Assembly: GCA_040767105.1 (NCBI GenBank) | Contig: JAXGPE010000007.1 | Location: forward strand, 2,465 to 66,464 | DNA length: 64,000 nucleotides | Source of the DNA: Peptococcaceae bacterium | Lineage (GTDB): Bacteria; Bacillota; Peptococcia; DRI-13; PHAD01 | Reading direction: 5' to 3' | In this document: positions 14,323 to 42,338 of the stretch, one piece after another | Position numbering within the stretch: position 1 is the first letter of the stretch | Layout of the letters: each line of letters opens with the position of its first letter | Program-made: the position numbers and the translations under genes | Notes under the pieces: model-generated | Told to the model about the DNA's origin: nothing | Seen by the model: only the letters and a program-made list of their open reading frames with translations | The model's database searches: none

Positions 14323-14520
14323 TTACTTGTAGGGAATAAGCTTGATAACTCTTTGTGCATCAGCTGCTGACATTATAGCTGCCTTTCTCAGATTGCGTTT
14401 TCTTTTCGCTGTCTTCTTAGTCAATATATGTCTTTTAAATGCATGATTTCTTTTTATTTTGCCAGTACCCGTCAGATTAAAGCGTTTTGCTGCTCCACGG
14501 TGTGTTTTCATCTTCGGCAT
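14323..14520 (-). CDS. rpmI: 50S ribosomal protein L35
   Basis: [24 protein letters not shown]...HILTKK. Confidence 0.98.
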
Positions 14521-23146: not shown

Positions 23147-24883
23147 TCATTTTTGCAACATTCTTTCACGCATTTTCTTGCGTTTACGTACATAAGTTGC
23201 AGCATCTATTTCCAAAGCTTTAGCAGCTTCTCTGACATTACCGTATTTATCATAAGCTTTTTCTATAAGCTGCTCTTCTATTCTATTCACGGCAGCGCGC
23301 AAGGGCAAAATATCCTCAATATAGGGAACTCTTATATCCGACATGGAATGTTGGATATGCTGAGGCAAATCATCTTTGCCGATTATGTTTCCTGCACTCA
23401 TAACAAATACCCGTTCAACAATATTCTTTAATTCTCTGACATTGCCCGGCCAATCGTATTCATATAGATATTTCAATGCGTCAGCTCCAAAACCTTTTCT
23501 CAATTTATACTTATTGTTTACCTCCGCCAAGAAGTGTCTTAACAACGGTATTATGTCCTGCTTTCTTTCCCGCAAAGGCGGTATGGTTATAGGAACAACA
23601 TTGAGCCGATAATATAGATCCTCCCTGAATTTTTTCTGCCTGACAAGTTCTTCAAGATTCCGGTTGGTTGCGGCAATAATTCTTACATCAACTTTGACTG
23701 GCTTTGATCCTCCGATACGTTTGATTTCGTGTTCCTGCAACACCCTCAATAATTTGATTTGAACGGCAAGACTCAGCTCACCGACCTCATCTAAAAATAC
23801 CGTCCCGCCGTCGGCTACTTCAAATAAACCAATTTTGCCTGTTTCGCTGGCTCCGGTAAAAGAACCTTTTTCATACCCAAACATTTCCATTTCTATAAGA
23901 CTTTCAGGCATCGCCCCACAGTTTATACTAATAAAAGGCTTGTCTTTACGCAGACCGTTCTTATATATCAATTTAGCGATTTCCTCTTTGCCTACGCCTG
24001 TTTCCCCAAGCAAAATGACCGTAACGTCTGTTGGCGCAACTTTTTTTGCTGTTTGCATCACCTGAAGCATTTTCATATCTTCAGCGATTATATCCTCACT
24101 ATCCAATAGCTGCTTTCGGATCTCCTGTATCTCTAGATAATACTTATTGGCCAGTCTTTCTTTTTCTTCCAGTTCCTCTTTGAGTTCATAAAGCTCGGTA
24201 ATATCTCTTACATTGGTCACCACCATAGTGATCGATCCCTCGCTATCGAAAATAGGTGTAGAAGTGACCAATGCCTTTTTCCCCGTCTTAAAGCTCTGTT
24301 GGATCGTATTCGTCTTTTTATTTCTGAGAACCAGAACTGTAGCTGATTCGGAAAGATATCCTTCCCGAACAAGATCTTCGGTTTTTCTGCCGATTATCTC
24401 TTCTCTTTTCAGGCCGGTTATGCGTTCATATGCTTTATTCACCCTTAAGGTGACCGCTTCTCCGTCGGTAATATATATACCATCATATGACGATTCGATC
24501 ACATCATCCATTTTTGACCAGATCTTATGCGTTGTCATAAGTTGATTAAGCAATTCCTCCTTGGGAGTCACATCGTATATAAGCAATATGGCACACCGCC
24601 GGTTTTGATGATCAAGCAAAGGTATCAATTCAACATCAAGTACTTTATCAGAAATGTATATTCTGCCGATAGCCGGTTTTTTGCGTTTTGATAAAAACAG
24701 CGCCTGCATATCTCGGGGAAATATTTGTTTAACATTCTTGCCGAGCAAGTTCTCTTTTGGTTCATGCAATAGATTTGCAGCCAAAGCGTTGCAAGAAGTT
24801 ATCATGTTGTTTTTTTCTATAAATATTGTACCTACTGTTGAAGATTTGGCAAAAGTTTCGGAAATAACGCGCGCAAGATCCAA
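23147..24883 (-). CDS. Sigma-54-dependent transcriptional activator with PAS domains (PAS-PAS-AAA+-HTH)
   Basis: GETGVGKE, GSFTGA, FLDEVGEL, FREDLYYRLNV, WPGNVRELKN. Confidence 0.93.
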   Translation of the reverse strand: MDLARVISETFAKSSTVGTIFIEKNNMITSCNALAANLLHEPKENLLGKNVKQIFPRDMQALFLSKRKKPAIGRIYISDKVLDVELIPLLDHQNRRCAILLIYDVTPKEELLNQLMTTHKIWSKMDDVIESSYDGIYITDGEAVTLRVNKAYERITGLKREEIIGRKTEDLVREGYLSESATVLVLRNKKTNTIQQSFKTGKKALVTSTPIFDSEGSITMVVTNVRDITELYELKEELEEKERLANKYYLEIQEIRKQLLDSEDIIAEDMKMLQVMQTAKKVAPTDVTVILLGETGVGKEEIAKLIYKNGLRKDKPFISINCGAMPESLIEMEMFGYEKGSFTGASETGKIGLFEVADGGTVFLDEVGELSLAVQIKLLRVLQEHEIKRIGGSKPVKVDVRIIAATNRNLEELVRQKKFREDLYYRLNVVPITIPPLRERKQDIIPLLRHFLAEVNNKYKLRKGFGADALKYLYEYDWPGNVRELKNIVERVFVMSAGNIIGKDDLPQHIQHSMSDIRVPYIEDILPLRAAVNRIEEQLIEKAYDKYGNVREAAKALEIDAATYVRKRKKMRERMLQK

Positions 24884-24958
24884 AAGAGAAACCCTCCTTT
24901 ACCGCAATGGTTTTACTCCTTATATTTTAACTTTTTTTCATTTTGGTGAACTAAATGA

Positions 24959-25310
24959 TCATCCTTTTTGCTTGTATAATTCTTTACCCTGAGCGATTAT
25001 TTTCTCTTCGCATATTTTTCTTAATAATTCAAGTTCTTCAGCATAATCGGCGTCAGTAAACTCATCTTTATGTTCGAGCTCCTCATAAATAATGATATCG
25101 AAATTATCTTCGCCCATGCTTTTCCATTCCTTCTGCAATTCTTTGTTGGTATAAATCCGACCTGCAGGCGTTTTGTGCCGTTGATGCCAATCCTTCGTTT
25201 GCTGTAAAAGCATTTATTATTTAGCTTGCAACAAGCTGCGAATATACCACACCTTTGGTTTTTCTGTTCTTATATTGCTCGGTCAACTCTTTTTTACGCT
25301 GTGCATCCAT
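24959..25310 (-). CDS. Small GIY-YIG-like protein (frameshifted)
   Basis: MDAQRKKELTEQYKNRKTKG(G)VY... then NKELQKEWKSMGEDNFDIIIYEEL...DYAEELELL. Confidence 0.6.
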
Positions 25311-25411
25311 ATTATCTTTCTTCCTTTCTCAATATCACTTATTCAATGCTAATGCTTGTTTGTTCTCTTTGTCAATAAATTATACTTATTCGATAAGTCC
25401 ACGCGTAAAAC

Positions 25412-25440
25412 AAAAAGAGGAGTGCAGCTGCGCTCCTCTT
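25412..25440 (-). terminator. Terminator downstream of tRNA-Val
   Basis: AAGAGGAGCGCAGCTGCACTCCTCTTTTT on minus strand. Confidence 0.7.
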
Positions 25441-25467
25441 CCCAAATCCTTGTTTTGTAAATACCTA

Positions 25468-25544
25468 TGGTGGGCGGTAATGGACTCGAACCATCGACCC
25501 CTACGATGTCAACGTAGTACTCTAACCAGCTGAGCTAACCGCCC
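25468..25544 (-). tRNA. tRNA-Val (GAC)
   Basis: 77-nt cloverleaf GGGCGGTTAGCTCAGCTGGTTAGAG...CTACG-TTGACAT-CGTAG...GGTTCGAGTCC...ACCA; CCA encoded. Confidence 0.97.
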
Positions 25545-25572
25545 ATTAAAAGTTCTTGGCGAACTAAATATT

Positions 25573-25601
25573 ATTATAGAGGGGCCCATCTTTCTTGTCA
25601 A
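25573..25601 (-). promoter_or_regulatory. SigA promoter of tRNA-Val
   Basis: TTGACA-17 nt-TATAAT. Confidence 0.85.
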
Positions 25602-25616
25602 ATTTAATAATAAAAA

Positions 25617-25645
25617 TTGAAAATATCCTTTAACCTTGCTATAAT
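25617..25645 (+). promoter_or_regulatory. SigA promoter (extended -10) of the tRNA-His-like RNA
   Basis: TTGAAA-17 nt-TATAAT, with TG one base before the -10 box. Confidence 0.75.
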
Positions 25646-25663
25646 GGGTTCGAGCACATCATG

Positions 25664-25736
25664 AGGGATTGTGGTGTAGAGGTTGCACTCAGGTACGTGG
25701 CACCTGATTACGTGGGTTCGATTCCCACCTATCTCT
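25664..25736 (+). ncRNA. Non-canonical tRNA-His-like RNA (anticodon GTG)
   Basis: Cloverleaf: GGGATTG/CTATCTC acceptor, GTG/CAC D-stem, CAGGT-ACGTGGC-ACCTG anticodon arm, GTGGG-TTCGATT-CCCAC T-arm; A32/C33, A-1:U73, no CCA. Confidence 0.7.
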
Positions 25737-25789
25737 CTTGGCGTTGGCTTAAAACCCTTTTAAACCCTTTATGGGAACATTTTTTGTCC

Positions 25790-26568
25790 AAAAAGGTTTA
25801 TTCTGCCTGTATAACTCTGTGAAGCATGGTAAAAAAGAAATCCTTCCTGGCATACTTCATTTTTTATTTTATTGATATCCAATCCTGAATAATCATCATT
25901 CTCATACAAAATAAAGTTTTAAATTTTCATCGCTTATGCGTTTCAATCTCCTCTTTATAATGCTGACCCAGGCGGCGCTTTTCTTCTTTTTCTAAAGGTG
26001 GATTCTCTGCTTACATATCCCGTCAATGAGCCCCGCTGTATAAAGACAAACTTCTTCCACCCCGTTGTTTTGGATCAATAAGCCTTGAGGGTGGCGCTGG
26101 TTTATTTTTTGAATAATTTCTATTAAGGCTAATATTATTTCGTTTTTTTCTGATCTAGAGAACATTGGTGATTCAATATCAGCCATTGTATCAAGAAATA
26201 TACCGTCATAACCTGCATGATATAGTTCGCTTGCCTTATTCAACAAAATCCTGCTCCAGTTTTTGGATCTAGGATCAGCAAGGCTTGCGGCATATTTTTC
26301 GTTACGTAGGATCAAATCATTTCTTTTAAGGAGATCCGCTTGTCCGAGCAACATTTTTCTCTCTGGTATAATCAGCGACCTCGATAACACTCATGTAGGC
26401 AATACAGACTGTATTATTCTCTTTTAACCATCTGACGCTTTCAGCTGATTGTCCTGGGATTCCAAAATGGCAATGTCAAAATTAGCTGCTTCTTTTTCTT
26501 GTCCGTGTCCATAATAAAGCACCGCCAGTATCTGCTTCTGCAAAGCGTTTCCCAAGTATTTTCAACAT
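25790..26568 (-). CDS. Endo-alpha-1,4-polygalactosaminidase-like hydrolase (GH114 / PelA hydrolase-like), heavily frameshifted
   Basis: YYGHGQEKEAANFDIAILE, IAYMSVIEV, DPRSKNW, GYDGIFLDT, LLIQNNG, IDGIC; 3' end approximate. Confidence 0.75.
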
Positions 26569-26582
26569 GCTCCCGTTTGATA

Positions 26583-28425
26583 TCATAATTTCGGTCCCAT
26601 CCTATACAGAAACTCAGTATATACCATACAGCTGCGGCATGTATTTCCGTGTCTTTCACAAAGAACTCCTTCATTTTCCCAGCAATTTGTTCCCGGATTA
26701 TTAAAAGCCGGGCAATGCTTGCAGACGCTTTTGGGCGAGCAGCGGATCTCCCAGCATTTACCCAACGATCTGCCTCTGATTTCTGGTCTGGCCTGTTTTT
26801 TTGCGAACCAGTTGATCAAAGCATCAACTGCCTCAGTATCCAGCTGAGTTCCGGAAGCACTTTTCAGCAAGTCTATCGCCTCGGCGAAAGGCAATGGCTC
26901 ACGATATCTGCGGCCGCTTATTTTAGCTAAAAATGTCTGCACCACAGCAATGATTTTTGAACCTACAGGTATTTGTTCGCCCTTGATACCCTTGGGATAT
27001 CCGTATCCATCTATCTCATGATAACGGATGTAATCGGCGACCCTTTATTCGGTATTGTAGCTTTAATCAAGCCCCAACCTCCGCGTGCATTTTCATCTTG
27101 TCATATTCTGCTTCTGTGTATTTTCACATTTAAAGAGCAGTTCATTTGAAAACCAAGAACTCCGATATTGCCCCAGCAGCAGCCAATACCACATCTTTGA
27201 TGATCCTTCTTCTAAATTCATTTCGCAGGCGATGATACCGGCATACTTGGCCATAAGTTCAGAATATCCTACAGTATAAGGCTCAAGGTTATCAATCGTT
27301 TCTGCCATTAGCTTCAGTGTTTCAAGATATGATTCTGCAAGTTTTTGTATTTATTTTTGGCTGTCAAAGATCGGCTAAACGCTTCATCATTAAATGCAAT
27401 CCACGATAAAACGATGAGTTCTGCAAGGATATCATTGTACCAAAATGCCGCTATGCCCTTGTTCTTCTGTGTGGGTATATTTACAAGTATAACTCAACTC
27501 TATACCATGCTTGATCAGATGCTCCGGAAGAGTATAAAAATCGCGGTCTTTTTGTTCAGGATGCGGATCTGTCTTCCAAGTCCCAACGGCTCAGTTTGTG
27601 TATTCAGCGGTGTTGCGCATCATCACAACCTGCTCTGCTCTGTTTTTTACAAGTCTTCGTTGTTTTTCTTCTGCGATAATAAATCCTCCACCCGGCAGCT
27701 CCAATCATTTTTGCTGTTAAATTGATCAACAAGCGGCGTTGCCGACAAAATCTGTTAACTGTCACACTCAGGCTGTGAATAACGGCGCTTGGTACCTGTG
27801 ATCATGAACTCTGTTTTGGAGATCATCAAGATCATCGATCATTTTAGCTGAGTTACCAGCACCCGGCAAGCGTATTGTAGCCTTTTCCTGATTTTAGAAT
27901 TTTCTTTACCGGGACTATTTGGACAAGTCCTATATCCTCCAAAAGTATATTTAATAAATTTGACCGTATTTGATTATTGATATAAGCTTGAATATTTTTT
28001 GTTTTCATATCCTCAATTGCTTGGGAATATATTTATCTTTATAAGACAATAGACCACTGTATAGGTGATATATCAGTCATCTTCCTCCTGGTGCCTGATG
28101 TAGTACATATTGATCATTTCTTTTGTCGTAAAGGTAAAAAAAAGTATCAGGGCTCCAACTAAGGTTCGGAAAAATATCCAATACCGAACAAAGCATTTTG
28201 TCTAATCCCTCTTACATTAATACAAGTTCGGAATGGACCATTTTCAATATCTTGTGTTTTTCGATGTGTTTGGACTTTTTATGACTGACAACAACTACGA
28301 TCAAAGCAAAAATAATAATATCAGCTATAATGATCGAAATATTATTAGCTGGCAAGTTTGCGATAAAATCTTCGATGTTTTGATCGACCCAAAAATAGTC
28401 CCCAAAAACTACTAATTTTTTGCAT
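26583..28425 (-). CDS. Membrane-anchored degenerate HD-GYP protein with a C-terminal Cys-rich two-CW domain (heavily frameshifted)
   Basis: ATG 28425 after GAAGGGGG; TM IIIADIIIFALIVVVV; LEPYTVGYSELMAKYA; L.GNIGV in place of LHDIG; DGYGYPKGIKGEQIPVGSKIIAVVQTF; SGTQLD; CWE..C..CPA..NCWE..C..C..C. The link between the N-terminal TM and the HD part is inferred across frameshifts. Confidence 0.7.
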
Positions 28426-28429
28426 CGCT

Positions 28430-28782
28430 TTCCCCCTTCGCTTTTTTCAGATGCCTGTGCACATATTGTATCGCCATTTGTTAGTCAACTCGTTCAGCGT
28501 TCTTGTTTGAGATTTGGATGGATTGCTGCAGGATTACATCAATAACACTGCAATGCTCACGAATAAAAAACAGAAGGGTCGGCGGATAATCCACTCCAAC
28601 CAGCTCAGCAACGATGATCAGAGTGTTCGGCATAAAGGATAGGATCAGAATCAACAAAAGCCCCGCCAAACCATAGCATAGAAGTTCCTCTCGTTGATCT
28701 TTCTTCGGACGAGCAGAGCGCCTATTGCAACTACCAAGATGACACCGATAATCGCGGCCACCAGACGTGTTATAGGACTCAT
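28430..28782 (-). CDS. DUF2304-family small membrane protein (GacJ/Rv3632-like), frameshifted
   Basis: Directly downstream of a GT2; AELVGVDYPPTLLFF and SIQIS motifs followed by a short coiled coil. Confidence 0.7.
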
Positions 28783-29469
28783 TGTTTTGCCTCCTTGGTA
28801 GATTTCGAACGTATAATAATGACCAAAATACTTATAAGCATTTAAAGATATAATACGCTGGTCACAGGCCCAGAATGCGCCACTCCTCCTTCCTGCTCTA
28901 ATATTAGCAAGGAAACTCCTTTACTTTAAAAACCGCGCAGGATCATTCCGATAAAAATATCAGCATCAGGATAATCATAAAGGAAATTACCCATCATTGC
29001 GTAATACTTAAACACCTCTCTTCTCAAGCCTTGCAGCCCGAGGATGGTTATCCTCACTTTTGTTGCCATAAAGATTATCAGCGAAAAAGAATTGTGCTGT
29101 TCTTTTCATAAAACCAGTTCTAAAATCACCTTTGCCCAAAACCTTGAGCCAACTACTATATCAGCATTTTCTCCATCCATTATATCCAGCAGCTGAGATA
29201 TCTCGGTCATGCTGCCCGTCTGCATCGAACTGAATTACCCTCATAGCCGCGGGCACAAGCATACTTAAACCAGTCTGTAATGCTGCCCATGGCAAATTAT
29301 ACGGAAGCGCTATAACCTCCAAACCGGCCTCTTTGGCCTTTTTAACCGTTCGATCAGTGGATCCGTCGCGACTAAAAGTATATCGATCGGATAATTAAAT
29401 TTGCAGTTCCACAATGACTACTCGATACTTTTTCTTCATTCAGGGCTGGAATGATCAAGATTTTTCCAT
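28780..29469 (-). CDS. GT2 glycosyltransferase, polyprenol-phosphate sugar synthase (DPM1/GacI/PpgS-like), heavily frameshifted
   Basis: Manual fragments: IIPALNEE, DGSTDRTVKKAKEAG, AALQTGF.YA, QFDADGQH, ADIVVGSR, YDYPDADI. Confidence 0.75.
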
Positions 29470-31054
29470 CTCACGCCTCCTCTTTTTCTAAGTAAATACA
29501 GCGCCCAAAAATATACCGTCGTTAAGATCAATCCCGCTCCCATACCAAAAGCAAAGTTTGGTCCAAAGTTTTTCGGTTGAGAGTACCACAAACGGTTTAA
29601 AAATAAAATTATAAATAAGGGGAGTTGACCGGAGTATTTCGTATATTTTGCGAGTTGCTTTTTTCATTTTTACTCCCAGTGCTTTTTAAGGATAAAAAAA
29701 GCATAGATTGAAATTAAGTGAGCGCGGCCCCGCCCCGACCAGCCGGGCAAAAACTTTTGTCAAATAAAAATCGGCAGCAATTGTGATTAAAGAGGTGGAT
29801 GTTAGAATCACCAGGGGCTATCGTCTTGCCGTACCATAAAAAACCTTAATCAATGTAGATCATCCCGCCCGACAATGGTCAAAGAATATCCAGCTAGTAT
29901 ATCAGCAGTTATTTGCAGTGAAGGCTGATCAAAGCCCTCTCTGAAGCAATACAGGCCATTGGCACGCGCAGTAAACAAATTGTGAGCGTCAATGGTACGA
30001 GCGGTAGAGCTATCAGCCTGATTGCTCTGTTGTAGTTCACCGGAATAAATCATAGTCACCTATACCCTGGACTTGGCCATATCAGGAAATACGACGGCGA
30101 TAGCGCACAAAAACCCAAATGGAAACTGGGCAATGCGATAAGCATAATTAAGTCAGATATAGTTTCCTTCCCCGATAATCCGGCAAGATATCGTTCGGCA
30201 AAAAAAACTGTTTGCATTGCAAGCAAAATTAAAAAATAAGGAAAAAATGTTCCCAAAATACTTTCAAATCCTGTGAAGAGGATATTTTTGTCTTGTACTC
30301 ATCAAGCGGCCTTCTGATAGTAATATAAGCCGGCGAATCCCCCCCAAACAAGTACCGCCATGAATACGACCCCGCAAGTTATACCCCAGGCTATTATAAA
30401 TACGCCGTTTTGAATAAAGACATCATTCAATATACCGTATGTTATGGAGAACAGAAATATCATATTGAAAACAAGCGGACCCAAAGCCGGCAGATTAAAT
30501 TTTTTGTACACCTGCATTATTGATGCACCAATATTGTATAGGGGATAAAACAAAATAGTCGGCAGAAGGATACACAATAATTTTATCGTTAGTTCCGATG
30601 TTTCTTCAGACATACCAGGGCTAAGCAGTTGAATGATCTCCTCTCTGCCGAGGATCATAAGTATTGTTAATATAAGTGCCGCTCCCCAAAACATCAGGAC
30701 ACTATTTTTCAATGTTCTTCCTAACCTTTCTTTTTGTCCCAGTATCCATAGTTTGGCAAACACCGGGACACAAGCGACACCAACTGCTGCTGCAAAAAGG
30801 TTGTTACCGACAGTATCAGGTATAAATAGAGCTATCAGCAGTGCATCAGATTGTGGTGAAGTGCCGAGATAATATGCAAGCACAATATCCCTAAGCAATG
30901 CCGCGACCGCCAAAAGCATGTTAATAAATACTAAGGTGCTTATACTGCTGCTTAGCATCTTTTTGTTAGATTTTATCAGGCTTATCAAAGTTTTGATCAA
31001 CATGCTGCACTTCCTTAATATACCGCTATAAATATTGATTTTAGTATCGACCAT
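29470..31054 (-). CDS. MurJ/MviN-like (MOP family) lipid-linked sugar flippase; 3' half frameshifted
   Basis: LLRDIVLAYYLGTSPQSDALLIALFIPD, CVPVF, KFNLPALGPLVFN; downstream fragment FFAERYLAGLSG. Confidence 0.8.
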
Positions 31055-31078: not shown

Positions 31079-31939
31079 TCATAGCTTGACTTCAGGCCAT
31101 ATACATTCTTGGATCACCTGGCTCATCGGATAAAACTTATGCGCCTTTATTAACCTCCGGATTTTTGAAGCAGTAGTAACGATATTATAATAGTGAACAA
31201 AACATATATGAGGAGGAAAATCTAATCTGGGCTGCTCAACATCTATTTCCCAAGGATGGACATAAAGCATAGCTGTATTTTTTTTACTGACCTGTCTGAA
31301 ACAGTGATTTACAAACCAATATGGCCAAAATCGCAAGTAAAAGCCTCCTGAAAATGGTATCTTGAATATTCCGAACTTCAAAACTGTAGATGGATATTCT
31401 AAAATATTGATTTTTCTGCCGTCGATCACTGGATAAAAGGGTCTGAGCGGTGCTTTATTAACACCTGATAGAGGTGTTCGAAAAGGCTGTATACTGGAAT
31501 CGTATATAAAGCCCTCCTGCTCAAGAACTTCAAAGACCCAAAGTGTGTCGCGGGATATCGACCAAGATGCGGCACGATAACCAGTGACCGCCTTCCCCGT
31601 AACATCTTGCAGAATATTCTTTGATAAGATCAAATCCTTAGTGAACCATTCCCGGGATTGGGCATCAAGCATTCGATGCTCATAGCCATGCGAGGCTATT
31701 TCATGTCCTCTTGCGGATATTTCACGTATCAACTGCGGATATTTTTGTGCTATATAACCCAAAACAAAAAATGTCCCTTTCGTTTCTGTATGGTCTAATA
31801 TATCCAAGAGCTCAATGGTATTTCGTTCAATGCGATCTTCGTATTCCGGCCATTTTGAACAAGGAAAATCGAAATCGTTGGTTTGATACCAATCTTCCAT
31901 ATCGATCGTCAGGGTATTTTTCATCATTGTACTCCTCAT
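31079..31939 (-). CDS. Polysaccharide deacetylase (CE4, DUF3473-type)
   Basis: TIDMEDWYQ, GTFFVLG, HEIASHGYEH, GYRAASWS, YDSSI, GGFYLRFWPY, YVHPWEID; no signal peptide. Confidence 0.9.
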   Translation of the reverse strand: MRSTMMKNTLTIDMEDWYQTNDFDFPCSKWPEYEDRIERNTIELLDILDHTETKGTFFVLGYIAQKYPQLIREISARGHEIASHGYEHRMLDAQSREWFTKDLILSKNILQDVTGKAVTGYRAASWSISRDTLWVFEVLEQEGFIYDSSIQPFRTPLSGVNKAPLRPFYPVIDGRKINILEYPSTVLKFGIFKIPFSGGFYLRFWPYWFVNHCFRQVSKKNTAMLYVHPWEIDVEQPRLDFPPHICFVHYYNIVTTASKIRRLIKAHKFYPMSQVIQECIWPEVKL

Positions 31940-33102
31940 CTAAATAAAATCTTTTGCCACATATTCTTGTCAAAAAAATATCTTGCTGCTGCCAAGAAGA
32001 AACCTAAAACCGGCAGTGGATCATCCGGGGAATACATATCGTCATAAACCAGTTGCTTTTTACCGCTCAAAAATGGCGGGTCCATATTTCTCCGCTGCTT
32101 ATTAAAAAGGAAATGCAGAATTTCTCCTGGAAAAGTCCATTTGCATTTGATACCGGTTCGATAAGACGAAACATATTCGATGGGTTCGTTTATCATTGTT
32201 TGATAAAGCAGCCAGGGGAAATCTATGCCGGCAAATATGGCCATCTGGACTGAAGCCCAAAAGCGCGGATTTATTTCCATAAAATACATCTGTCCATCTG
32301 CTTTATTTTCCATGAATTCGATTTCGACAATTCCCTGCCAGGGCAGCAGTTGCATTAATTTGAGGCTCATATCGAGCAGTTCCGGATTTTCAACACTTTC
32401 CTGCACAGTACTTGGGCCCCAGTTGATAGGAAAGTTTCGAATCTCTTTTTGGACAAAAGAAGCTTTAAGCTCACCGTTTCTATCATACAGAAGACAAACA
32501 TCATATCTGTTTTTTGGCTCAATATATTGTTGAATCATGGGCCATGGATATTGCGAATGGATCTTTATGTATTCAGCTATCAGCTCTTCTTTACAGCTGA
32601 CTTTGCGAATGCCTCTTGATCCTGAGCTTATACGCGGTTTTATTATCAGAGGATATTTCATGTCTTCCGAAAATTCATATACTTGCTGCAAATCAGTTAT
32701 ATTCATCGTCAACGGGCAGCACAATCCTGCTTCCCGGGCTTTGACCATTGCTTTTCCTTTGTCAGCGGCACAAAAATAACTTTCCGAAGCAGGAAGAGGC
32801 ATAAGGCATAATTTTTCAAGCTCATCCCGATGTTTTACTGCAAGAAAAAAAGCATCGTCATCCATCGGGATAAAAATCTGGCAGTTATTATCCAGCAAAG
32901 TTTTTTTAATCCAGCTCAGATATTCATCTTCCTTTGAATGCTGTTCAGGGGAAACTATATGTTTGTAACAGTATTTGGAGCAGGCAGTCGGAGTAAAGTG
33001 AGTCCGGTCTGCGGCAATGATCTGCAGCCCCCGTTTGCCAAGCGATCTTGTTACTGCAAGCGTTTTGCGCTGCTGGGCATCAGAAAGGAGTACCTTTGGC
33101 AT
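31936..33102 (-). CDS. ATP-grasp carboxylate-amine ligase
   Basis: LAVTRSLGKRG, YPLIIKPRISSGSRG, MIQQYI, FMEINPRFWAS, AGIDFP. Confidence 0.88.
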   Translation of the reverse strand: MPKVLLSDAQQRKTLAVTRSLGKRGLQIIAADRTHFTPTACSKYCYKHIVSPEQHSKEDEYLSWIKKTLLDNNCQIFIPMDDDAFFLAVKHRDELEKLCLMPLPASESYFCAADKGKAMVKAREAGLCCPLTMNITDLQQVYEFSEDMKYPLIIKPRISSGSRGIRKVSCKEELIAEYIKIHSQYPWPMIQQYIEPKNRYDVCLLYDRNGELKASFVQKEIRNFPINWGPSTVQESVENPELLDMSLKLMQLLPWQGIVEIEFMENKADGQMYFMEINPRFWASVQMAIFAGIDFPWLLYQTMINEPIEYVSSYRTGIKCKWTFPGEILHFLFNKQRRNMDPPFLSGKKQLVYDDMYSPDDPLPVLGFFLAAARYFFDKNMWQKILFR

Positions 33103-33114: not shown

Positions 33115-35166
33115 TTAATCATTTAGATTAATAATATCTACAGGATTCTTTCCATCTTGTTCGATTTTGTAAACCTTTAAAAAATCACTTTCATAAAATA
33201 CGCTGAAGCGGTCGTCTTTCTGCATGCCTAACTCTGCCCAGGCATTGACCTTTTTTTCAATATTATATCTATTTTTTATATCGTAGTAATAGGTTTCATT
33301 TGCATTATTGCCAGGCGCTGGCAAAGCTTCTTCCAGAGCATTTTCATTGACAAAACCGTTTGAATTCAACGGTACCTTTTCAACAAATACAAAAATATAA
33401 TCAGTCGGTATCTTCAGCTCCTGGTTATCCTCGATATTTTTTACAAACTCCCATATTTCGTAGTGCCAACCATAACCAAGTGCCTGCTGGTACTGTTCGA
33501 CAGGTGAGATTATCGTCCAATTCGCTCTTGGAAAATTTTCTTTTATTTCAAGATATGCCAGAACAGCCTCATCATATTCGTATCGCTCCCCTTTCGGTAT
33601 TGCATTAAAGGGACCAGCGGACAATACAAAATACAAAGCTGTAACACAAAATATCGTTTTATAAATATACTTGTGTTTATCTTTAATGCTTAATATATCG
33701 ACAAAATTTATCGGGCTGGCCAGCACAATAACAATAAACGGCGAAAAGAAAATACCGATCCTTACCGGGTCCATGACTTGGGGCAATCCATAATAATTGG
33801 CTCTATAGAGAAGATACAATACTATCGTTGTCAGAATAAATGCTCCAGATGATTGAAAGGACTCATTTTGCAGGTTTTTTTTGTATCTACTCAGTAAATT
33901 AGTTAAGATCAATATTGATATACATGCAAAAAACAGCAATAGTATTCTATTGTTTTCCATAAATATGCTTTTTTCGATTGACCCCGTGCTGTCCTGAATA
34001 ATTTTGAATTTACTCTGAACATATCCTAGGCTTTCATGGAATTTCTTGCCAAGAGCGAGTGCCGTAAACCATGGTAGAACGGCTATAGATACCGCACCTA
34101 TCATTGATAATGCGAGCGAAAAAATGATCCTTCCTTTGCATATTTTTTTTATGTTCGTCAGAATCGATATACTATAAGACAAAGTCAGAATAATTGTCGC
34201 ATACGGGTGGATAAAAGTTACTATCGCAAGGCACTCCGCTGCAAGGAACAGAAATTCTTTCTGACGTTTTTTGATATAGATATTCAGGAAGTGAATACCG
34301 GGCAAGATAAAAATGATCGCATATTCCATCGGCAGAGGAGATATTTGTCTCCATATATAACTGGGTAATTCTGCACTTACGGACAACCCATAGATCAACA
34401 TCGCTGCCCATGCCAAATGAGTTCCATTAAAATTCTTTCTCGCAAAATAGTAAATACTTATAACGATCATAATTCCGGCCAATGGTCCTAAAAAACGCAT
34501 AACATAATAAGGATCGATGAAGAAGACCCGTTCTATAGCAGCTACAACTGCTTGATAACCATAAGGATATATGCCGTCATGATATATATCATTCTGGATA
34601 AGATACTTAGTCCAGGCAAGATGCAGATAGGAATCCGAAGTTCCCAAATACATATGGGTGAATGAATGGTGGAAACGAATAAATGCCGCCCCGATAAATA
34701 CAGCTAAAAGCAATACTCCTTCAAAGGGGCAGCATATTATCTTCCTTGCTAGGACTCTTATACATACGAATATGCCTTGACGGCAGGAGCAAAAAATGCT
34801 TTGCATTAATTTCCGCAGCCAGTTTTTTGTTTCGGATATATCCAAAAGTCTCACGATAAGGATCATGCCAAAAGTTTCAGTGGATGCGGACGATTTTCTT
34901 CTTTTGGCAAGCCAGATAGCAAATATATATAGTGCCAAATAGCTCAACATAAGAGAAAATGTTTCATATATCTTCAAAAACACTAATATATGTGTCAAAA
35001 GTATGATCACAAAATGAGCATGAGTAATGCTGATAAAGAATTTGTCCCCTATTCCTTTGCTGTCTTCACGAAAAGGAATTATCCCAGAAGGTAAAATAAC
35101 GTAAAAAAGCATGTATACAAAGATAACTTTGAAAAACATCCCCATGGTATTGACAGGATCGATCAT
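33115..35166 (-). CDS. Polytopic membrane protein, probable GT-C fold glycosyltransferase (paralog 2)
   Basis: 683 aa with many TM segments; loop SDSYLHLAWTKYL...DGIYPYGYQ; soluble C-terminal domain; paralogous to the upstream gene. Confidence 0.7.
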   Translation of the reverse strand: MIDPVNTMGMFFKVIFVYMLFYVILPSGIIPFREDSKGIGDKFFISITHAHFVIILLTHILVFLKIYETFSLMLSYLALYIFAIWLAKRRKSSASTETFGMILIVRLLDISETKNWLRKLMQSIFCSCRQGIFVCIRVLARKIICCPFEGVLLLAVFIGAAFIRFHHSFTHMYLGTSDSYLHLAWTKYLIQNDIYHDGIYPYGYQAVVAAIERVFFIDPYYVMRFLGPLAGIMIVISIYYFARKNFNGTHLAWAAMLIYGLSVSAELPSYIWRQISPLPMEYAIIFILPGIHFLNIYIKKRQKEFLFLAAECLAIVTFIHPYATIILTLSYSISILTNIKKICKGRIIFSLALSMIGAVSIAVLPWFTALALGKKFHESLGYVQSKFKIIQDSTGSIEKSIFMENNRILLLFFACISILILTNLLSRYKKNLQNESFQSSGAFILTTIVLYLLYRANYYGLPQVMDPVRIGIFFSPFIVIVLASPINFVDILSIKDKHKYIYKTIFCVTALYFVLSAGPFNAIPKGERYEYDEAVLAYLEIKENFPRANWTIISPVEQYQQALGYGWHYEIWEFVKNIEDNQELKIPTDYIFVFVEKVPLNSNGFVNENALEEALPAPGNNANETYYYDIKNRYNIEKKVNAWAELGMQKDDRFSVFYESDFLKVYKIEQDGKNPVDIINLND

Positions 35167-37134
35167 TTATTGTTCCTCCCCCAAACCCGGCGTTTTTCTT
35201 CTTCTGCCTTCTTTTGCTGGTGTATATGCCATATTCTAAGTACATCATCTTCATAATAAACGCTTATGTTGTCATGATATTTTTGGTATTCGTAAAGCCA
35301 ATCCTTTAATTTTAAGTATTCCGATTCCCGACGTTCATATATTTCCTGTAAAGACTCAAATTCCGCCCTGAAAAGTTCTTTTTCTTCATAAATGAAAATA
35401 TCTTCGTTATCAAGAAATTCTTCAGGATCACCATCTTTACGAAAAAGCTTTGGGGTGCTGGGGTCATACCAGGTCAAAAAGTCCTGCAACATCAGATGCC
35501 AGCCTTTTCCGAGCACAATAGCATATCCTTCCTCTTGTGAGACGATAAGCCAGGTCGTAGGGGTAAATTCCTTTGATATTCTTAAATACTGAGCAACTCC
35601 GCTTTCGTGCTCCATTTTATATGGTTTTGGGATTATCGGTTTATCATTGACCAATATAAAAACAAAGATGGCCATCACAAAGAATATTCCCACACATCTT
35701 TTTTTCAGAGGCGGCAGAAGGTAAGCCAAAGAATTCATCCCAAATCCTATACTGATCGGAAGAGCCAGTGTCCATAAATCGTCTGCCCTGAAGCAACGAA
35801 GGTGCTTTGCGTCCATACCCTCCCCAGCGATAAAGCACAAACGTAAAGCTCGCAAAAAATAATATAAGTAAATCGTACGCACGACTTTTTTCACGACGAA
35901 AGGGAAGCGTGATCACTATGATGAGTAGTCCGGCTAAAGCAGCGTAATCCAGGTTTTTTAATGCCGGTATATATGTTATTGATGATTGGGCAACCAAATA
36001 TTCCGCTGAAGACCCGTGGAACTGAGAACCTAACAGTAGTCCAATCGCAGCAGGAAGAATCGAAATAAGACACGCTATGATCCCGGCAAGTGCAATGGTC
36101 AAAACCCTTCTCCACCGCTTACGAAACCCTGTCAACAATCCAGCCAGGCCGACTAACGCCATCCCCAGTCCTATGTAACCAAAACCAAGCGTATGAGAAA
36201 GTCCTGCTGCACAAGTTGCCGCTAAAGCCGGAATGAGGTCTTCGATTTTTCCCTCAAAGACAAAGCGAGCAAAGAAAAAGAGGGCCGGGAAAACAAAGAT
36301 AAAGGCAAACTCCTGAGAGTTTGTAGACGCTTGCCGCATCCAGTCATCAAAAAAGCTTCCACCCATTATCCCGTATATGAATGCCGCAAGCAAAGCCGGA
36401 GAAGTTTTTTCCGTGATTCTATATACAAAATAACCCATAGCTCCTGTTGTAAGCAAACCGTTAAAAGGTCCGGTAAATTTTAGTACATGTAAAGGATCGA
36501 TCGCCGAAAACTTATAGATCGAAGCCAGAATGATGTGAAAGCCCTGAGGATATATACCATCATGAAAAATATAGCGTTGGTTGATATATTTCATCCAGGC
36601 CAATGTGACGTATGCATCTGACATTGCCGGCGCAGAGGTCGTCCAAGCATCATAAAACCTCAAATATGCCGCTCCGCCTATAACCGAGATCAAAATCAGC
36701 ATTGTGAGGAGATTGGGTGGTCTGCGCAATTTTTTCAAGGCATTTAATGCTTTTTTTCGTTTGTCCGAAAGATTTTCGTTTAATACCTTGGAGACCTTTT
36801 CTTTATTTTCCAAAAGATCGTACATGCGAATGTTAAAGCTTGTAAGGAAGTTCTCATTCTTTTTTTTGCGATAAAAATGATACACCGCATAAATCAAAAT
36901 TACGATGCTTATACCCAAAACCTCGAATAGCTTTATCGCAGCCAGAATATATCCAAAAATGATCAAAAACATTGTCATAATGACATAGTTGCTTACTGCA
37001 TTATCTATGGAGCTTTCCTGGCGGCGCGAAAAAATAAACCGCGGGATTATCGAAAATATCACGACAAAGGCAAGCAGGAACCTACCAAATAATATTGTTT
37101 TTTCCCAGAAGAGAGCGTCCATGCAATTCACCAT
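35163..37134 (-). CDS. Polytopic membrane protein, probable GT-C fold glycosyltransferase (paralog 1), frameshift near 35800
   Basis: SDAYVTLAWMKYI...DGIYPQGFH; MRQASTNSQEF; C-terminal WLIVSQEEGYAIVLGKGWH matches WTIISPVEQYQQALGYGWH of paralog 2. Confidence 0.7.
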
Positions 37135-38727: not shown

Positions 38728-39897
38728 TCAGTCTTCCATTCCGGGTAAAACCATATTCACGATCAATTCAGGCAATTTACCCTCGGTTTCAGCCTTAGAA
38801 ATAATTTCTTTAGTTATCGTTGCACCCTTTGTTATTATTGCCTCCCCGTTATTACCGATTAGATCTTTCCCGGCCAATTTACCGGCAATATATTTGAAGC
38901 GTGTATTTATTATTTCACTGGCAACCGCTGGACTGCCGGAGTTTCCGCCATCACTGCTTGCATTTTCTTCTGTACTGTTTTCTATTTTTTCATCGCTATA
39001 ATCTTTTAACTGGGTCTTTATCATTTCACTTGTTTGCGTTTTATAATGATCCAACATATCTTCTGCCTTCTGTATACTTTGTGTTCTGTTTTCTTGTGTG
39101 CTGTTGTTTTCAGTATCAGAAGTCTTCCAAAATTCTTCAATTTCTTCATGATTGGCGCTGATATTCTCGGATCCACTTTCTTCTTCGGCAGCTTCTGCCG
39201 TAAAGTCTTCCTTTGTTATTTCTTCCTTATTAAGTTTCTGGGCAAGTTTATTCATCATTCTTTTAAGACGCCCAGCCTCCTCGTCTTCTCTTTTTTCATT
39301 TTCACTCTCGAAAAAAGGTGTCCCATCAGCAGCGATCTCTTTTTCCTCAGCCCATTGATCATTTGAATCGAAATCGCTCAAGTCTTTTTCTTGGTTACGC
39401 AAATTTCTCTCATTTATTATTTCATTCAGTTTAATTATTTTGTTAGATAGTTGCTCAGTTTCAGGGACGCTTTTTTCAGTATCTTTCATGATGCTCGCTA
39501 ACTCCTCAAGCAAGCTTTTGATTTGTTTTTTTGTTGTGACAATTTCTTCTTCAATATCAGCGATTTTTTGTTTATCCGCAGCTTGTTCTTTTTCAGCTTC
39601 TTTTAAAACCTTTTCCGCATCCAACGCTGCTTTTTGCATTAATATTTCCGTCATTTCCTTGACCCTGTTTACCGTGAGGGTTATAAAATCTTCACCCTCA
39701 AAACGCGTTGCCCATTTTTCCTGGAGTCTATCAAGTTTCTCACTCAAAGTGTATTTCTCCGACAATGTCTCTTCAAGCTGCCTTTGCAACTGTGACAATT
39801 CAAAAGAATGGTTTTCCTTAAGTTTCTGAAAATAGCTTTCAACTTCACGTTTTCTATATCCTAATAACTTTATTCTAAAATTTTGAGGTCCCGTCAT
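38728..39897 (-). CDS. DivIVA-like N-terminal domain protein with coiled coil, acidic linker and small C-terminal domain
   Basis: FRIKLLGYRKREVESYF; long heptad region; C-terminal KYIAGKLAGKDLIGNNGEAIITKGATITKEIISKAETEGKLPELIVNM. Confidence 0.7.
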   Translation of the reverse strand: MTGPQNFRIKLLGYRKREVESYFQKLKENHSFELSQLQRQLEETLSEKYTLSEKLDRLQEKWATRFEGEDFITLTVNRVKEMTEILMQKAALDAEKVLKEAEKEQAADKQKIADIEEEIVTTKKQIKSLLEELASIMKDTEKSVPETEQLSNKIIKLNEIINERNLRNQEKDLSDFDSNDQWAEEKEIAADGTPFFESENEKREDEEAGRLKRMMNKLAQKLNKEEITKEDFTAEAAEEESGSENISANHEEIEEFWKTSDTENNSTQENRTQSIQKAEDMLDHYKTQTSEMIKTQLKDYSDEKIENSTEENASSDGGNSGSPAVASEIINTRFKYIAGKLAGKDLIGNNGEAIITKGATITKEIISKAETEGKLPELIVNMVLPGMED

Positions 39898-40315
39898 CTC
39901 CGTACGCCTCCAAAACCTTCTTGTATGAATTTGTGATTGTTTCCATCTCTTTGGTCAAAGACTCCAATGCCTTTTTGATTTCCAGGCGTTTTGTCTCCTT
40001 TTCAAAAATATCCGCTTTGGATTTTCTGATAATTCGCTGGCCTTCTTTTATCGCCGCAAACACCTCTTTGCTTGCACGATCATGACTATCGAACAACTCT
40101 TTCATTATTTTCTGGTTAAGTCGTTCGCGCTCCTCAAATTCATCATTGATCTGCCGGATCTTTTCTTGCAGCAACTCTATTTCTCGAGTGACATTGTATA
40201 ATTGATCGCTTAATTCCTTGATCCTATTCTCGTAGTGCTCTATATCAGAAATGATCCTGTTTTCGACCTCGGCCCGGTCATATCCAAAAAGAGCACGCGG
40301 AAATATCTTTTCCAT
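39875..40315 (-). CDS. DivIVA-like domain coiled-coil protein
   Basis: FPRALFGYDRAEVE followed by about 120 aa of coiled coil. Confidence 0.7.
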   Translation of the reverse strand: MEKIFPRALFGYDRAEVENRIISDIEHYENRIKELSDQLYNVTREIELLQEKIRQINDEFEERERLNQKIMKELFDSHDRASKEVFAAIKEGQRIIRKSKADIFEKETKRLEIKKALESLTKEMETITNSYKKVLEAYGDDGTSKF

Positions 40316-40324: not shown

Positions 40325-42060
40325 TCAAGCGATTTGTTGATGATTTAGGACATCAAAAAGAGCTTCGGCCTTGTCCAGCTCATTGAAGGCCTTATCAAAC
40401 TGACCCATGCTATTATAGGCTTTTGCGATCTCAGTGATTATAGCCGGTACTGCCGGGGTATCCGGCGCTACTTCTACTGCCTCCCGCAGCTGGATCAAGG
40501 CTTCAGGCCACAATCCCAGAGACATAAAAGCATATCCTCTTTCGATACGCAGACGCTGAACACGGATCTTATCCGTGATCTTCGTTAAATCATCTTTACC
40601 CTTGGCAAGAGCTTTATAACTACTAAATACGCATCAAGTACTTTTTCAATGGTGAAATAATTCAGAGCCCGTTGGCGAGCTTCCTCGCCAAGGTTGATTC
40701 TCATCTGCGGATTTTCTAAAAGCCTTATAACTTCTTTTGCAAGCTCTTCCGGCTTGTTAGGCTGGATAAGTATCCCTGTTTCACCGAGCGCTTCGCTTAT
40801 GCCGCCAACATCAGTGGCAACGACAGGCTTCCCTGTCATCATAGCTTCTACAACGGAATAAGGGAACGCCTCAGTTATACTTGAAAGGCAACTACATCTC
40901 CACTGCGATAGGCCGCAGGTATATCCTCAGTGTGTCCAGCGAAAATAAAATTTTCTTGCAGTTCTTTTTCCTGGACCAGTTTCTGACACTCTGCGAAATA
41001 CTCAGGTACTGCTACCGAACCATACACAATAAAACGCACATCTTTTATTCTGCTGCGTACAATATCCGCAGCACGGATCAATGTGACTATATCTTTACCG
41101 GATCTATACGAGCTACAGTAATAACAGTAGGGAATTTGTTCGAAATACTTCTTGGAGGTGGAGTAATACCTCCTTATTAACTCCGTTATAAATAACTTTT
41201 ATCGCTTCTTGCTTTACTCCAAGATTTTTCTCCCAGCGTGGATTATAATTGCATACAGGTGAAACTTGGTCTGCGAAGTGGGAATTTAGCTGCGTGATCG
41301 AGTTTATCATTCGCACTAAAAAAGTGTTAAGAAAAGAAGGATAGCCCCTTTTAGACAAGGAAAGATATTGCTCGCGCAGGTAAACTCCATGTTCGGTCAA
41401 AAGAAAAGGTGTTTTATTTTGTATTTTTGCCAGCACACAGGGGATCCCGCAAAATGCCGCCGCGGCAGAGTGCGAGACATTTACCCTTGGTATAGGCGTA
41501 TTAAGAATTATCAGAAAGCGATATATCCAGCCCATGCTCTGGATCATCGCCCAGACATTGGGTTCACTTATCTGATTGCTTTTTTCAGAAGAGAAGGCCA
41601 TGAGCATTTTTTTATATATTTCCCATGTGTCTTCAGCCTTGAAGCTTTTTTTATAATCGTATTCCTGAAAATACTCATGCATATTCGTAAGAGTATTTCC
41701 AAATCTTACCGCATTTTTTTCAGTACTTACTAATTCTTCGATCAGGTCTAAAAATAAGGGCAAAAACTCGCGCCGTACTACCTGATCATTTGTTTGCCGC
41801 TTAGCGATATAAACCTGAGAAAAAGGTGTAGTCAAGTGTTCGCTTGGTTCTTCAGTTCCCCAAAGCGGTACGGTTATAAGGCTTGAAGTTAAAGGAAGAT
41901 TAAATTTCCTCGTGACAAATGGATTCATGATAATGCTATATACAACATACTCAATGTCTGTAAGATTATGTACAAGCTGATCACACCAAGTGCTGACTCC
42001 GCCTTGATGATATGGATATGTCCCTTCAGTTGTGAGCATCACCCTGATTTTATCTTCCAT
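40325..42060 (-). CDS. pelF: PelF-like GT4 glycosyltransferase (DUF3492 plus GT-B) with a fused C-terminal TPR region; several frameshifts
   Basis: TEGTYPYHQGGVSTW, LTEHGVYLREQY, VIYNGV, EAFPYSVVEAMMTGKPVVATDVGG; a shift near 40620 leads into SYKALAKGK...RGYAFMSLGLWPEAL...AKAYNSMGQFDKA. Confidence 0.85.
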
Positions 42061-42338
42061 TTGCAGGTCACCTTTGCTTGTTTGGTCGGCATTAAAAACA
42101 CAGTGCATTTTTACCAGACAATTAAGAATAAAATGTATAGCATTTTTCTATTAATACATTATAATTAGTGATACGTGACTAAAATGAATTGTTAAATATC
42201 ATTTAAAATTTATTTTAACATTTATTTACTTTTTATTCAAATATATCTTTGTTTTTCAACTCATTATTAGATAATCTTATATTATTCTCTAAATTTTTTA
42301 ATAAAATTAATGTTATTTAATTTTTAAGGAGGATTTTT

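Follow-up and report, generated by a model that had tools for sequence, protein, structure and literature searches.

It is textbook knowledge that GGDEF and EAL domains, once dead, can serve as receptors. For the HD-GYP fold, PA2572 of Pseudomonas aeruginosa (a YN-GYP protein), in which the HD motif is degenerate, has reportedly been described as regulatory rather than enzymatic, and is said to be a soluble protein of the response-regulator type with no link to a polysaccharide operon. A single structurally proven dead HD-GYP receptor was found in the literature searched, DvhD of Desulfovibrio vulgaris (2026), which belongs to a protease-adhesin system. According to the sections of its description cited here, in DvhD the HD dyad reads SQ, the double His reads MN and the last Asp is replaced by N; the protein shows no metal density, does not hydrolyse cyclic di-GMP (c-di-GMP) with any ion tried, and binds it with an effective dissociation constant of ~99 nM, this binding splaying the stalk helices (PMC13090378). 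The active form of the fold is represented by PmGH, for which the part of the work cited here reports three irons bound through E185, H189, H221, D222, H250, H276, H277 and D305, iron at the G site only in the complex with c-di-GMP, hydrolysis abolished by Ala at H189, H221, D222, H250, H276 or H277 as well as at D183, K225 or D308, and some activity kept by E185A and by the markedly reduced D305A (PMC4159591). In Pel polysaccharide systems the receptor is PelD, which acts within a PelDEFG complex; the portion of the Gram-positive Pel account used here describes pelDEA_DA FG operons with variable PelD proteins, and in that portion no HD-GYP protein takes the place of PelD (10.1101/768473). Here we analyse a stretch of 64,000 nucleotides from a Peptococcaceae bacterium (contig JAXGPE010000007.1 of assembly GCA_040767105.1, positions 2,465 to 66,464), referred to as a whole as the window, in which a minus-strand gene, called the sensor gene below, encodes a membrane-anchored HD-GYP protein with altered metal ligands at the end of a Pel-related gene cluster. 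From comparative sequence analysis we propose, with a probability of roughly 0.55, that the sensor is an analogue of PelD, binding c-di-GMP without hydrolysing it and controlling this Pel-related operon. Neither a dead HD-GYP receptor nor the principle behind PelD is new in itself; the sensor differs from the known cases in its architecture, in a metal site of which half is preserved, in a tail domain with no earlier description and in the unusual operon around its gene.

Since the frame breaks found in the sensor gene are assembly errors (see below), an intact database twin of 629 aa, P0008, which opens with MQKISSFWG as the window does, was taken as the corrected product, and its numbering is used throughout. 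HMMER alignments to PmGH (PDB 4mcw) and DvhD (9rbz), together with the list of DvhD contacts, place E185, H189, H221, D222, K225, H250, H276, H277, D305 and D308 of PmGH at Y394, Y398, S430, N431, V434, H459, H483, H484, Q512 and L515 of the sensor, respectively. The ligands lost are the equivalents of H189, H221, D222 and D305, with SN instead of the HD dyad, whereas the equivalents of the G-site His ligands H250, H276 and H277 are retained. The substrate contacts Y285, I294, R314 and K317 of PmGH correspond to Y492, I501, R521 and R524. Loss of hydrolysis is to be expected, because Ala at the same positions of PmGH abolishes or markedly reduces activity, and, as far as these alignments tell, the sensor does not have the catalysis-competent ligand set of the PmGH type. 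A preliminary description of the gene had read GYSELM and IAVVQ at two of the altered sites, and both readings stand in the window (GYS at 27269-27261, the Q codon at 26939-26937) as well as in P0008 (GYS and AVVQTF); its third reading, L.GNIGV, is LSNIGV in the intact sequence. The DGxGYPxG...IP and SGTQLD motifs that it listed as retained are present in the window, the former as DGYGYPKG...IP, and P0008 contains YHHE and DGYGYP. Correction of the frameshifts by way of the twin leaves the H, HD and D positions degenerate. The metal ligands, which the same description gave as substituted, are replaced at four positions, but the three G-site histidines and the HHE motif are kept.

These substitutions are a property of a family and not of one sequence. 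A homologue search, in which 7999 candidates were scored, gave 131 proteins at E<=1e-5, and 102 of them are full-length relatives with at least 299 bits, the next protein reaching 129 bits; the carriers include, by source name, Peptococcaceae, Tumebacillus, Paenibacillus, Alicyclobacillus and Fodinisporobacter. In an alignment of 91 sequences (89 near-full-length members of the 102 relatives plus two orthologues taken from related loci), 70 rows have SN...Q, with Y at position 398 in 67 of these, and the remaining 21 have H, HD and D (E in one row); mixed SN/D or HD/Q rows were not found among the 91. The exchange of H for Y, HD for xN and D for Q, which had been put forward as a possible conserved trait of homologues, therefore applies to 70 of the 91 and not to the 21 that keep H, HD and D/E. 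Within the 70 degenerate rows, Y, S, N and Q are conserved at 96%, 99%, 100% and 100%, against 73% for the median column of the domain, so that the four-ligand substitution is not attributable to chance. Over the complete alignment, H459, H484, I501, R521 and R524 are invariant (91/91 each), as is G491, and conservation is nearly as high for H483, E485 and Y492 (88-90 of the 91 members; 88 for Y492) and P493 (89/91), and lower for Y523 (78/91). The equivalents of K225 and D308 are missing in all family rows, including those of the HD type, in which M plus N, V or T are found, whereas five canonical HD-GYP outgroups have K plus D or E.

A quick IQ-TREE analysis of 98 family rows and the five outgroups, from which a truncated copy (genome G003) was left out, grouped the SN type as a single clade of 72 sequences (SH-aLRT 99) within an HD-type grade, so that one change suffices; the root of this tree is uncertain, given the long outgroup branches. 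A second, independent sample, made of 50%-identity representatives retrieved by the tail of the protein alone, included 92 proteins of at least 330 aa, with 31 exact Y-SN-Q rows and near variants of them, 34 H-HD-D/E rows and a few intermediates. The loss of the four metal ligands is conserved, coupled and of single origin. Sensors of the HD type and of the SN type both occur in the same polysaccharide cluster. The family is sparse: of 401 genomes drawn evenly from the phylum, 5 matched its N-terminal region, and a close C-terminal match was present in 5 of 40 relatives plus the genome of origin. In a search of genome contigs for related loci, the locus of Alicyclobacillus mengziensis (L018, NZ_CP071182.1) had the sole full-length family member among the 80 loci retained, the others being generic HD-GYP proteins, and the gene context described below was therefore drawn from loci of a separate genome search.

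Outside the active site, the sensor has one hydrophobic segment in a Kyte-Doolittle scan (residues 28-46, score 3.57), which lies in the same open reading frame (ORF) as the remainder of the protein in P0008 and in all orthologues examined, so the N-terminal transmembrane (TM) helix noted previously does belong to this gene. About 25 residues stand ahead of the helix and there is no periplasmic domain; the bulk of the sensor is predicted to be cytoplasmic, because the helix precedes a Lys/His/Arg-rich stretch (SHKKSKHIREKHK). The region that follows (residues ~52-365) is probably GAF-like. A family profile matched the GAF domains of PtsP (PDB 3ci6, E 6e-5, residues 50-109) and CyaB2 (1ykd, E 0.036), its match to PmGH reaches back into the end of the GAF domain of that protein, and ESM features gave GAF clusters at 0.95 for the N-terminal region. 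No Pfam or NCBIfam model matched these residues, and hhalign comparisons of the two N-terminal halves with a 7-sequence GAF alignment and with each other gave probabilities below 2%, a result uninformative on GAF. Pfam scans of the sensor detected no PAS, GGDEF or PelD_GGDEF domain, and matched HD_5 (PF13487) at 6.2e-13 on the last 150 aa read in the window and at 1.6e-29 and 1.9e-36 on orthologues.

The Cys-rich tail at the C-terminus can be read in the window as CWEIRC..C..CPAF..NCWE..C..HGN.C..C, as had been described. C573, C578, C587, C597, H608, C612 and C615 are invariant, and in total seven Cys and one His are invariant or nearly so. Neither a Pfam or NCBIfam model nor a usable ESM Atlas entry matched the tail, and the label "two-CW", which stems from the preliminary description, was not found in this sense in the literature searched. 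When the 64-aa tail of the window was compared with 1.84 billion representatives, 126 proteins were retrieved at E<=1e-3, nearly all of them family members of 590-650 aa with the tail at the C-terminus, and a common core CWE..C..CxxCPA[FY]..CWE..C..CxxC emerged. Pfam scanning of 23 of the 126, those of unusual length, rendered three TM-HD_5-tail-Glyco_hydro_114 fusions (P0183, P0206 and P0227), three proteins with the order HD_5-tail-STAS (P0170, P0191 and P0196, two of them with a GAF match) and three in which the tail accompanies a MerR helix-turn-helix (P0210, P0230 and P0231); the tail is also found in stand-alone proteins of 67-84 aa (P0221, P0224, P0228, P0233 and P0237). The tail is a mobile module, and its presence on MerR regulators suggests a sensory role in response to metal or redox state; in the sensor it probably provides a metal, Fe-S or redox input. 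The earlier idea that the tail supplies a separate sensory input fits this distribution on MerR regulators and as small independent proteins. In the three Glyco_hydro_114 fusions a whole SN-type sensor is joined, through linkers of 30-40 aa, to a domain of the GH114/PelA-hydrolase-like type, and one of the three is only ~31% identical to the other two, so that at least two diverged lineages are represented.

Among known proteins, the DvhD structures 9rc0 and 9rbz are the second to third best PDB matches to the sensor. The likeness to DvhD lies in the predicted membrane receptor, the Ser plus amide in place of HD and the amide in place of the last Asp (PDB 9rbz, 9rc0; PMC13090378 and PMC10990149, as far as the parts cited go); the exchange of Ser for His and of amide for carboxylate arose in both. 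GYP and the Arg and Tyr that hold c-di-GMP are kept in the two proteins, the DvhD contacts Y621, R650 and Y652 being aligned with Y492, R521 and Y523, and a stalk helix precedes the domain. DvhD alone has periplasmic and PAS domains, acts in a protease-adhesin (Lap-like) system, and has lost the double His and is metal-free. The sensor, unlike DvhD, has a GAF-like region, H459, H483 and H484, a Cys-rich tail and a polysaccharide operon around its gene, and no periplasmic domain. With PmGH the sensor shares the probable order GAF-then-HD-GYP and, by sequence, the fold (family profile E 4.5e-35), together with the G-site ligands and the substrate contacts; PmGH, on the other hand, has all eight ligands and is active, soluble and tail-less, whereas the equivalents of its H189, H221, D222, D305, K225 and D308 are changed in the sensor. 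PelD of P. aeruginosa and of Bacillus cereus has a TM anchor, a GAF-type region and a dead domain of c-di-GMP metabolism that serves as receptor (10.1101/768473, in the part cited), and the sensor resembles it in the anchor, in its probable GAF-like region and in its proposed use of a degenerate domain. The operon contexts are also alike, each having a PelF-type glycosyltransferase, a deacetylase and a hydrolase that is of the PelA type or similar to it. PelD differs in that its domain, a degenerate GGDEF that has an RxxD I-site, is preceded by four TM helices, as opposed to an HD-GYP domain and one TM helix. The likeness to PelD is one of apparent role and context, and does not imply homology.

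The operon around the sensor gene was examined in the window and in 11 related loci. In the order of the minus strand it comprises a PelF-like glycosyltransferase (GT4), two coiled-coil ORFs, three polytopic proteins (unkA, unkB and unkC), an ATP-grasp enzyme, a CE4 deacetylase, a MurJ-like flippase, a second glycosyltransferase (GT2), a DUF2304 protein, the sensor and a hydrolase-like gene (Table 1). The GT4 of the window is 51-59% identical to the proteins of loci L018, L103 and L105, which pass the NCBIfam PelF model with 155.5, 161.1 and 144.2 bits against a cut-off of 100; the N-terminal ORF of the window alone gives 61.7 bits against that same cut-off. In 8 genomes the cluster begins with a PelF-like gene; three further loci are truncated by a contig end, and the atypical locus of G003 has no PelF-like gene upstream. 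The hydrolase-like product matched the PelA structures 9cgy (2.8e-17, over ~150 residues) and 5tcb (1.1e-16), ahead of the TM1410/GH114 entries of the PDB, and an orthologue matched Pfam Glyco_hydro_114 at 1.8e-8; a hydrophobicity scan gave no TM or signal segment for it. Its ATG overlaps the stop codon of the sensor gene (TTATGA) in the window and in a redundant contig (C8, described below), and an overlap also occurs in locus L016 (G007). An interim reading as "not a Pel cluster" was dropped once the PelF cut-off had been passed and the PelA hydrolase domain had turned out to be closest to the hydrolase-like partner; with a PelF-family GT4 and a PelA-hydrolase-like gene, the operon is Pel-related by its sequence matches.

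The sensor gene lies beside the same cluster, at its end, in 10 of the 11 related loci, and the hydrolase-like gene is directly 3' of it in 6 of them, as in the window. In locus L015, a strong terminator-like hairpin (6172-6186, minus strand; 6 G-C pairs and T9) lies ~140 nt past the hydrolase-like gene, a position that agrees with an operon ending in the sensor gene and that of its partner; in number, the promoter-like and terminator-like sites of L015 did not exceed those of shuffled sequences. The proteins unkA-C have 9-13 hydrophobic segments each and recur in the cluster in different genera; unkB and unkC, which are 26-29% identical, are paralogues, and unkC had no match in the PDB. The deacetylase is a CE4 enzyme of the XrtA type (TIGR03006), and MurJ of Pfam was matched at 1.7e-22 by the piece in the window and at 9.5e-60 by an orthologue. 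The GT2 reaches 100.3 bits with NCBIfam PpgS, under the cut-off of 370, and adjoins the gene of the DUF2304 protein, which has 3 hydrophobic segments. This pairing is the GacI/GacJ and PpgS/Rv3632 arrangement, which makes HexNAc-phosphate-polyprenol according to the parts of the reports cited (10.1101/180810, PMC9671496). In those systems the pair decorates cell-wall polymers without a c-di-GMP sensor, whereas here it stands just upstream of the sensor gene within a PelF-headed cluster. PelG (PF16933) was not matched in G000, G001, G005 or G007, and the match in G002 lies on another contig: G002:C153:38517-39878 encodes a true PelG (407 bits) off the sensor cluster, and a canonical pel locus may coexist there. 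Pfam PelD_GGDEF matched nothing in the 5 genomes searched, but the control also matched nowhere, so that the search is uninformative on PelD.

Table 1. Position of the sensor gene, of the parts of its product and of the neighbouring genes in the window
Feature	Position	Strand	Remarks
Sensor gene (family FAM)	26583..28425	-	ATG 28425-28423, stop 26585-26583; TM + probable GAF-like region + degenerate HD-GYP + Cys-rich tail; frame-broken in window
Shine-Dalgarno-like GAAGGGGGA	28431..28439	-	5 nt 5' of sensor ATG; read in sequence
Single N-terminal TM helix	28287..28355	-	P0008 residues ~25-47
N-terminal sensory region, probably GAF-like	27363..28274	-	P0008 residues ~52-365 (~310 aa); densest frame breaks
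HD-GYP domain	26832..27308	-	P0008 384-547; Y398, S430, N431, Q512 at PmGH H189, H221, D222, D305
Cys-rich "two-CW" tail	26586..26777	-	P0008 566-629; 64 aa, 8 Cys + 1 His; unbroken in window
PelF-like GT4 (DUF3492 + Glycos_transf_1)	40343..42108	-	heads cluster; frame-broken ~40343-41160; tblastn
Two coiled-coil ORFs (389, 146 aa)	38728..40315	-	conserved in related clusters
unkA, polytopic membrane protein (529 aa)	37135-38724	-	no Pfam/NCBIfam family
unkB, polytopic membrane protein (~650 aa)	35178-37134	-	one frame break near 35800; no Pfam/NCBIfam family
unkC, polytopic membrane protein (683 aa)	33115-35166	-	no Pfam/NCBIfam family
ATP-grasp enzyme	31936..33102	-	Pfam
CE4 polysaccharide deacetylase + DUF3473	31079..31939	-	orthologue passes TIGR03006 (282.9 vs 276.2 bits)
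MurJ-like flippase	29470..31054	-	first 250 aa intact, remainder frame-broken; low-coordinate end approximate
GT2, polyprenyl-phosphate HexNAc (N-acetylhexosamine) synthase type (PpgS/GacI-like)	28800..29500	-	frame-broken; tblastn; Glycos_transf_2 2.7e-25
DUF2304 small membrane protein (GacJ/Rv3632 type)	28508..28782	-	frame-broken; tblastn; DUF2304 2.4e-22 on L015 orthologue
PelA-hydrolase-like (GH114/TM1410-like) TIM-barrel	25749..26586	-	broken in window; intact in C8 (L108:586-1422)

Some of the related loci have additional genes. In L014 (G001), at positions 9483-14378, the genes of the deacetylase and the MurJ-like protein are separated by a second GT2 and DUF2304 pair and by a radical-SAM gene. 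The cluster of A. mengziensis (L018, 1647-13169) also encodes a protein of the exosortase family (8TM_EpsH 7.2e-16, below cut-off), and a gene for a trypsin-like peptidase stands there between the sensor and the hydrolase-like gene. At the HD-type locus L103 (G044, 5874-7874) the PelF-family GT4 carries C-terminal TPR repeats, reminiscent of PelE, the TPR protein of Pel systems.

In the mechanism that we favour, the sensor would be a cytoplasmic protein tethered to the membrane via one N-terminal helix and would bind, but not hydrolyse, c-di-GMP or a closely related cyclic dinucleotide; the metagenome-assembled genome (MAG) to which the window belongs has GGDEF genes. Binding would alter the geometry of the stalk and of the dimer, as in DvhD, and the sensor would in this way exert post-translational control over the Pel-related polysaccharide machinery that its operon encodes, which is the role of PelD in Pel systems. 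The likeliest direct target would be the PelA-hydrolase-like protein encoded by the overlapping downstream gene, which appears as the nearest partner because of the natural fusions to the sensor. The GAF-like region and the Cys-rich tail may contribute additional inputs, in the case of the tail probably metal, Fe-S or redox. A PelD-like role had been proposed in the preliminary description, and both the succession of TM helix, probable GAF-like region and degenerate domain and the Pel-related operon speak for it; as a principle, the dead HD-GYP receptor has a precedent in DvhD (PMC13090378, in the part cited). The partners then suggested were the PelF- and PelG-like proteins. A PelF-family GT4 does belong to the cluster, but the MurJ-like transporter is not PelG by Pfam, and it is towards the PelA-hydrolase-like protein, rather than PelF or PelG, that the fusions point.

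Several observations weigh against the receptor interpretation. We know of no role for a cytoplasmic PelA-type hydrolase; the hydrolase-like gene is directly adjacent in just 6 of the 11 loci, and in three, of the HD type, the sensor is present with no hydrolase-like gene nearby. The GAF identity comes from weak matches only, a search with Rfam detected no c-di-GMP riboswitch in the window, and two contacts of DvhD, K582 and E668, are not matched by the same kind of residue in the sensor (Y453 and A539). Moreover, the complete or nearly complete conservation of H459, H483, H484 and E485 suggests that metal is still bound, unlike in DvhD, so that some catalysis, residual or altered, or a metal-sensing function would be conceivable.

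It is possible therefore that the site has been remodelled rather than inactivated, Y, S, N and Q forming with the His triad and the Glu a different mono- or binuclear centre for slow hydrolysis of c-di-GMP or pGpG, as in a "trigger" phosphodiesterase read by a partner. All four replacing residues are polar, could serve as ligands and show strict conservation, HD-type relatives occupy the same cluster, and PmGH retains some activity when D305 or E185 is changed to Ala. However, H189A, H221A, D222A, K225A and D308A abolish PmGH activity and all five equivalents are changed in the sensor (PMC4159591, in the part cited), and DvhD, which carries Ser and amide replacements of the same kind, showed no hydrolysis of c-di-GMP with any of the ions offered, according to the section of its description used here (PMC13090378), so that we consider a remodelled catalyst unlikely. 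It could also be the case that the sensor is blind to nucleotides and that the His site and the Cys-rich tail sense metal, redox state or a gas on an HD-GYP fold that is a mere scaffold. The conserved Cys and His of the tail, its mobility among MerR-type regulators, HD-GYP-STAS proteins and stand-alone forms, and the kept G-site histidines are all in keeping with such a sensor; but residues that contact only the nucleotide (the Tyr of GYP, R521, Y523, R524 and I501), needless for metal sensing, are conserved like the histidines, which disfavours a pure metal sensor and makes this option less probable still. A different question is that of the output, since the same receptor might act on the PelF-like synthase, or on the GT2/DUF2304 lipid-sugar synthase at the membrane, with the hydrolase-like neighbour merely co-transcribed. 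PelD, which works within the PelDEFG complex (10.1101/768473, in the part cited), sets a precedent for a synthase as target, the sensor is anchored in the membrane beside membrane enzymes, and, as said, 3 of the 11 loci dispense with a nearby hydrolase-like gene. In spite of this, we hold a synthase target to be doubtful, given that the sensor is fused to the hydrolase-like domain in three representatives and that no glycosyltransferase fusion was found among the 126 tail-bearing representatives, of which the 23 of unusual length were scanned.

Finally, the gene might be a decaying pseudogene in the source organism. On the minus strand, 26583-28425 holds one gene split over many short frames, with no ORF of at least 100 aa covering its length, and a frameshift-aware alignment of P0008 with the window counts 46 indel events (33 frame-shifting and 13 whole-codon), a net 47 bases missing from the window and one in-frame stop. 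Nevertheless, 557 of the 629 codons are identical outside the indels, and the neighbouring genes are broken alike: the window is fragmented throughout ~25000-30300, with six consecutive genes frame-broken and the flanks intact, and single breaks are also found in unkB and in the PelF-like gene. The window is contig C18 of a MAG of 975 kb in 20 contigs that is 64% complete and holds the small redundant contigs C8, C9 and C10, set apart from their twins by indels. One of these, C8 (2592 nt), covers positions 24593-27158 of the window with 97.3% identity and 29 gap openings, is unbroken over the common part and reads the C-terminal 195 aa of the sensor in a single frame, including YHHERIDGYGYP, which is complete in the intact sequence and from which the window has lost one His by deletion; P0008 is 99.5% identical to the translation of C8. 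Contigs of the 4 public runs compared, which come from 4 studies, all cover 25900-30400 and have common indels and substitutions with respect to the window. The 20.5-kb contig X1 spans that region in one piece with 117 differing letters and 207 gap letters, and has 4636 bases there against 4501 in the window, ~135 more; in the search of public runs, 0.18-0.32 of the 31-mers of the stretch were shared, and no run exceeded 0.32. The intact twin itself was found on 3 contigs, and its 90% cluster has two further members, all three being of 629 aa. A pseudogene is thus extremely improbable, and the frame breaks of the sensor gene are assembly errors and not signs of decay. The limits proposed beforehand for the gene, with an ATG at 28425 preceded by a ribosome-binding site and the stop at 26583, hold.

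Other elements of the window lie outside the operon. Just past the last gene of the cluster are a tRNA-Val(GAC) gene (25468-25544, minus strand) and a tRNA-His(GTG) gene (25665-25737, plus strand). An NMT1/THI5-ABC transporter operon is preceded by a TPP riboswitch (46318-46424, minus strand), and a T-box leader was detected at 47728-47989 (plus strand). The 1.3 kb at 7839-9136, which contain no long ORF, are 97% identical, with 17 gaps, to C12:12190-13490 and may represent a repeat, a mobile element or further redundancy.

If the sensor is the receptor that we propose, the principle of the dead HD-GYP receptor would be extended to Gram-positive spore-formers and to the control of polysaccharide synthesis, as well as to a metal site that is partly preserved. 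A wider reading, which we put forward as tentative and rather unlikely as a whole, is that of a coincidence detector rather than a simple substitute for PelD: a one-metal HD-GYP pocket would bind c-di-GMP uncleaved, the Cys-rich domain (Fe-S or Zn) would read redox state or metal, and both would gate a cytoplasmic PelA-type enzyme in a pathway that is headed by PelF, lacks PelG and pairs a synthase of the Pel type with lipid-linked HexNAc donors and three polytopic proteins. Were this true, a new Gram-positive exopolysaccharide system would be at hand. Two unannotated parts are worth study in their own right, namely the mobile Cys-rich domain held in common with MerR regulators and the PelF-headed cluster with its three membrane proteins. 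The HD-type grade and the once-derived SN clade, found in the same operon context, constitute a natural series for the change from enzyme to receptor, and the existence of cultured carriers (Tumebacillus, Paenibacillus, Alicyclobacillus and Fodinisporobacter, by source names) makes the hypothesis directly testable.

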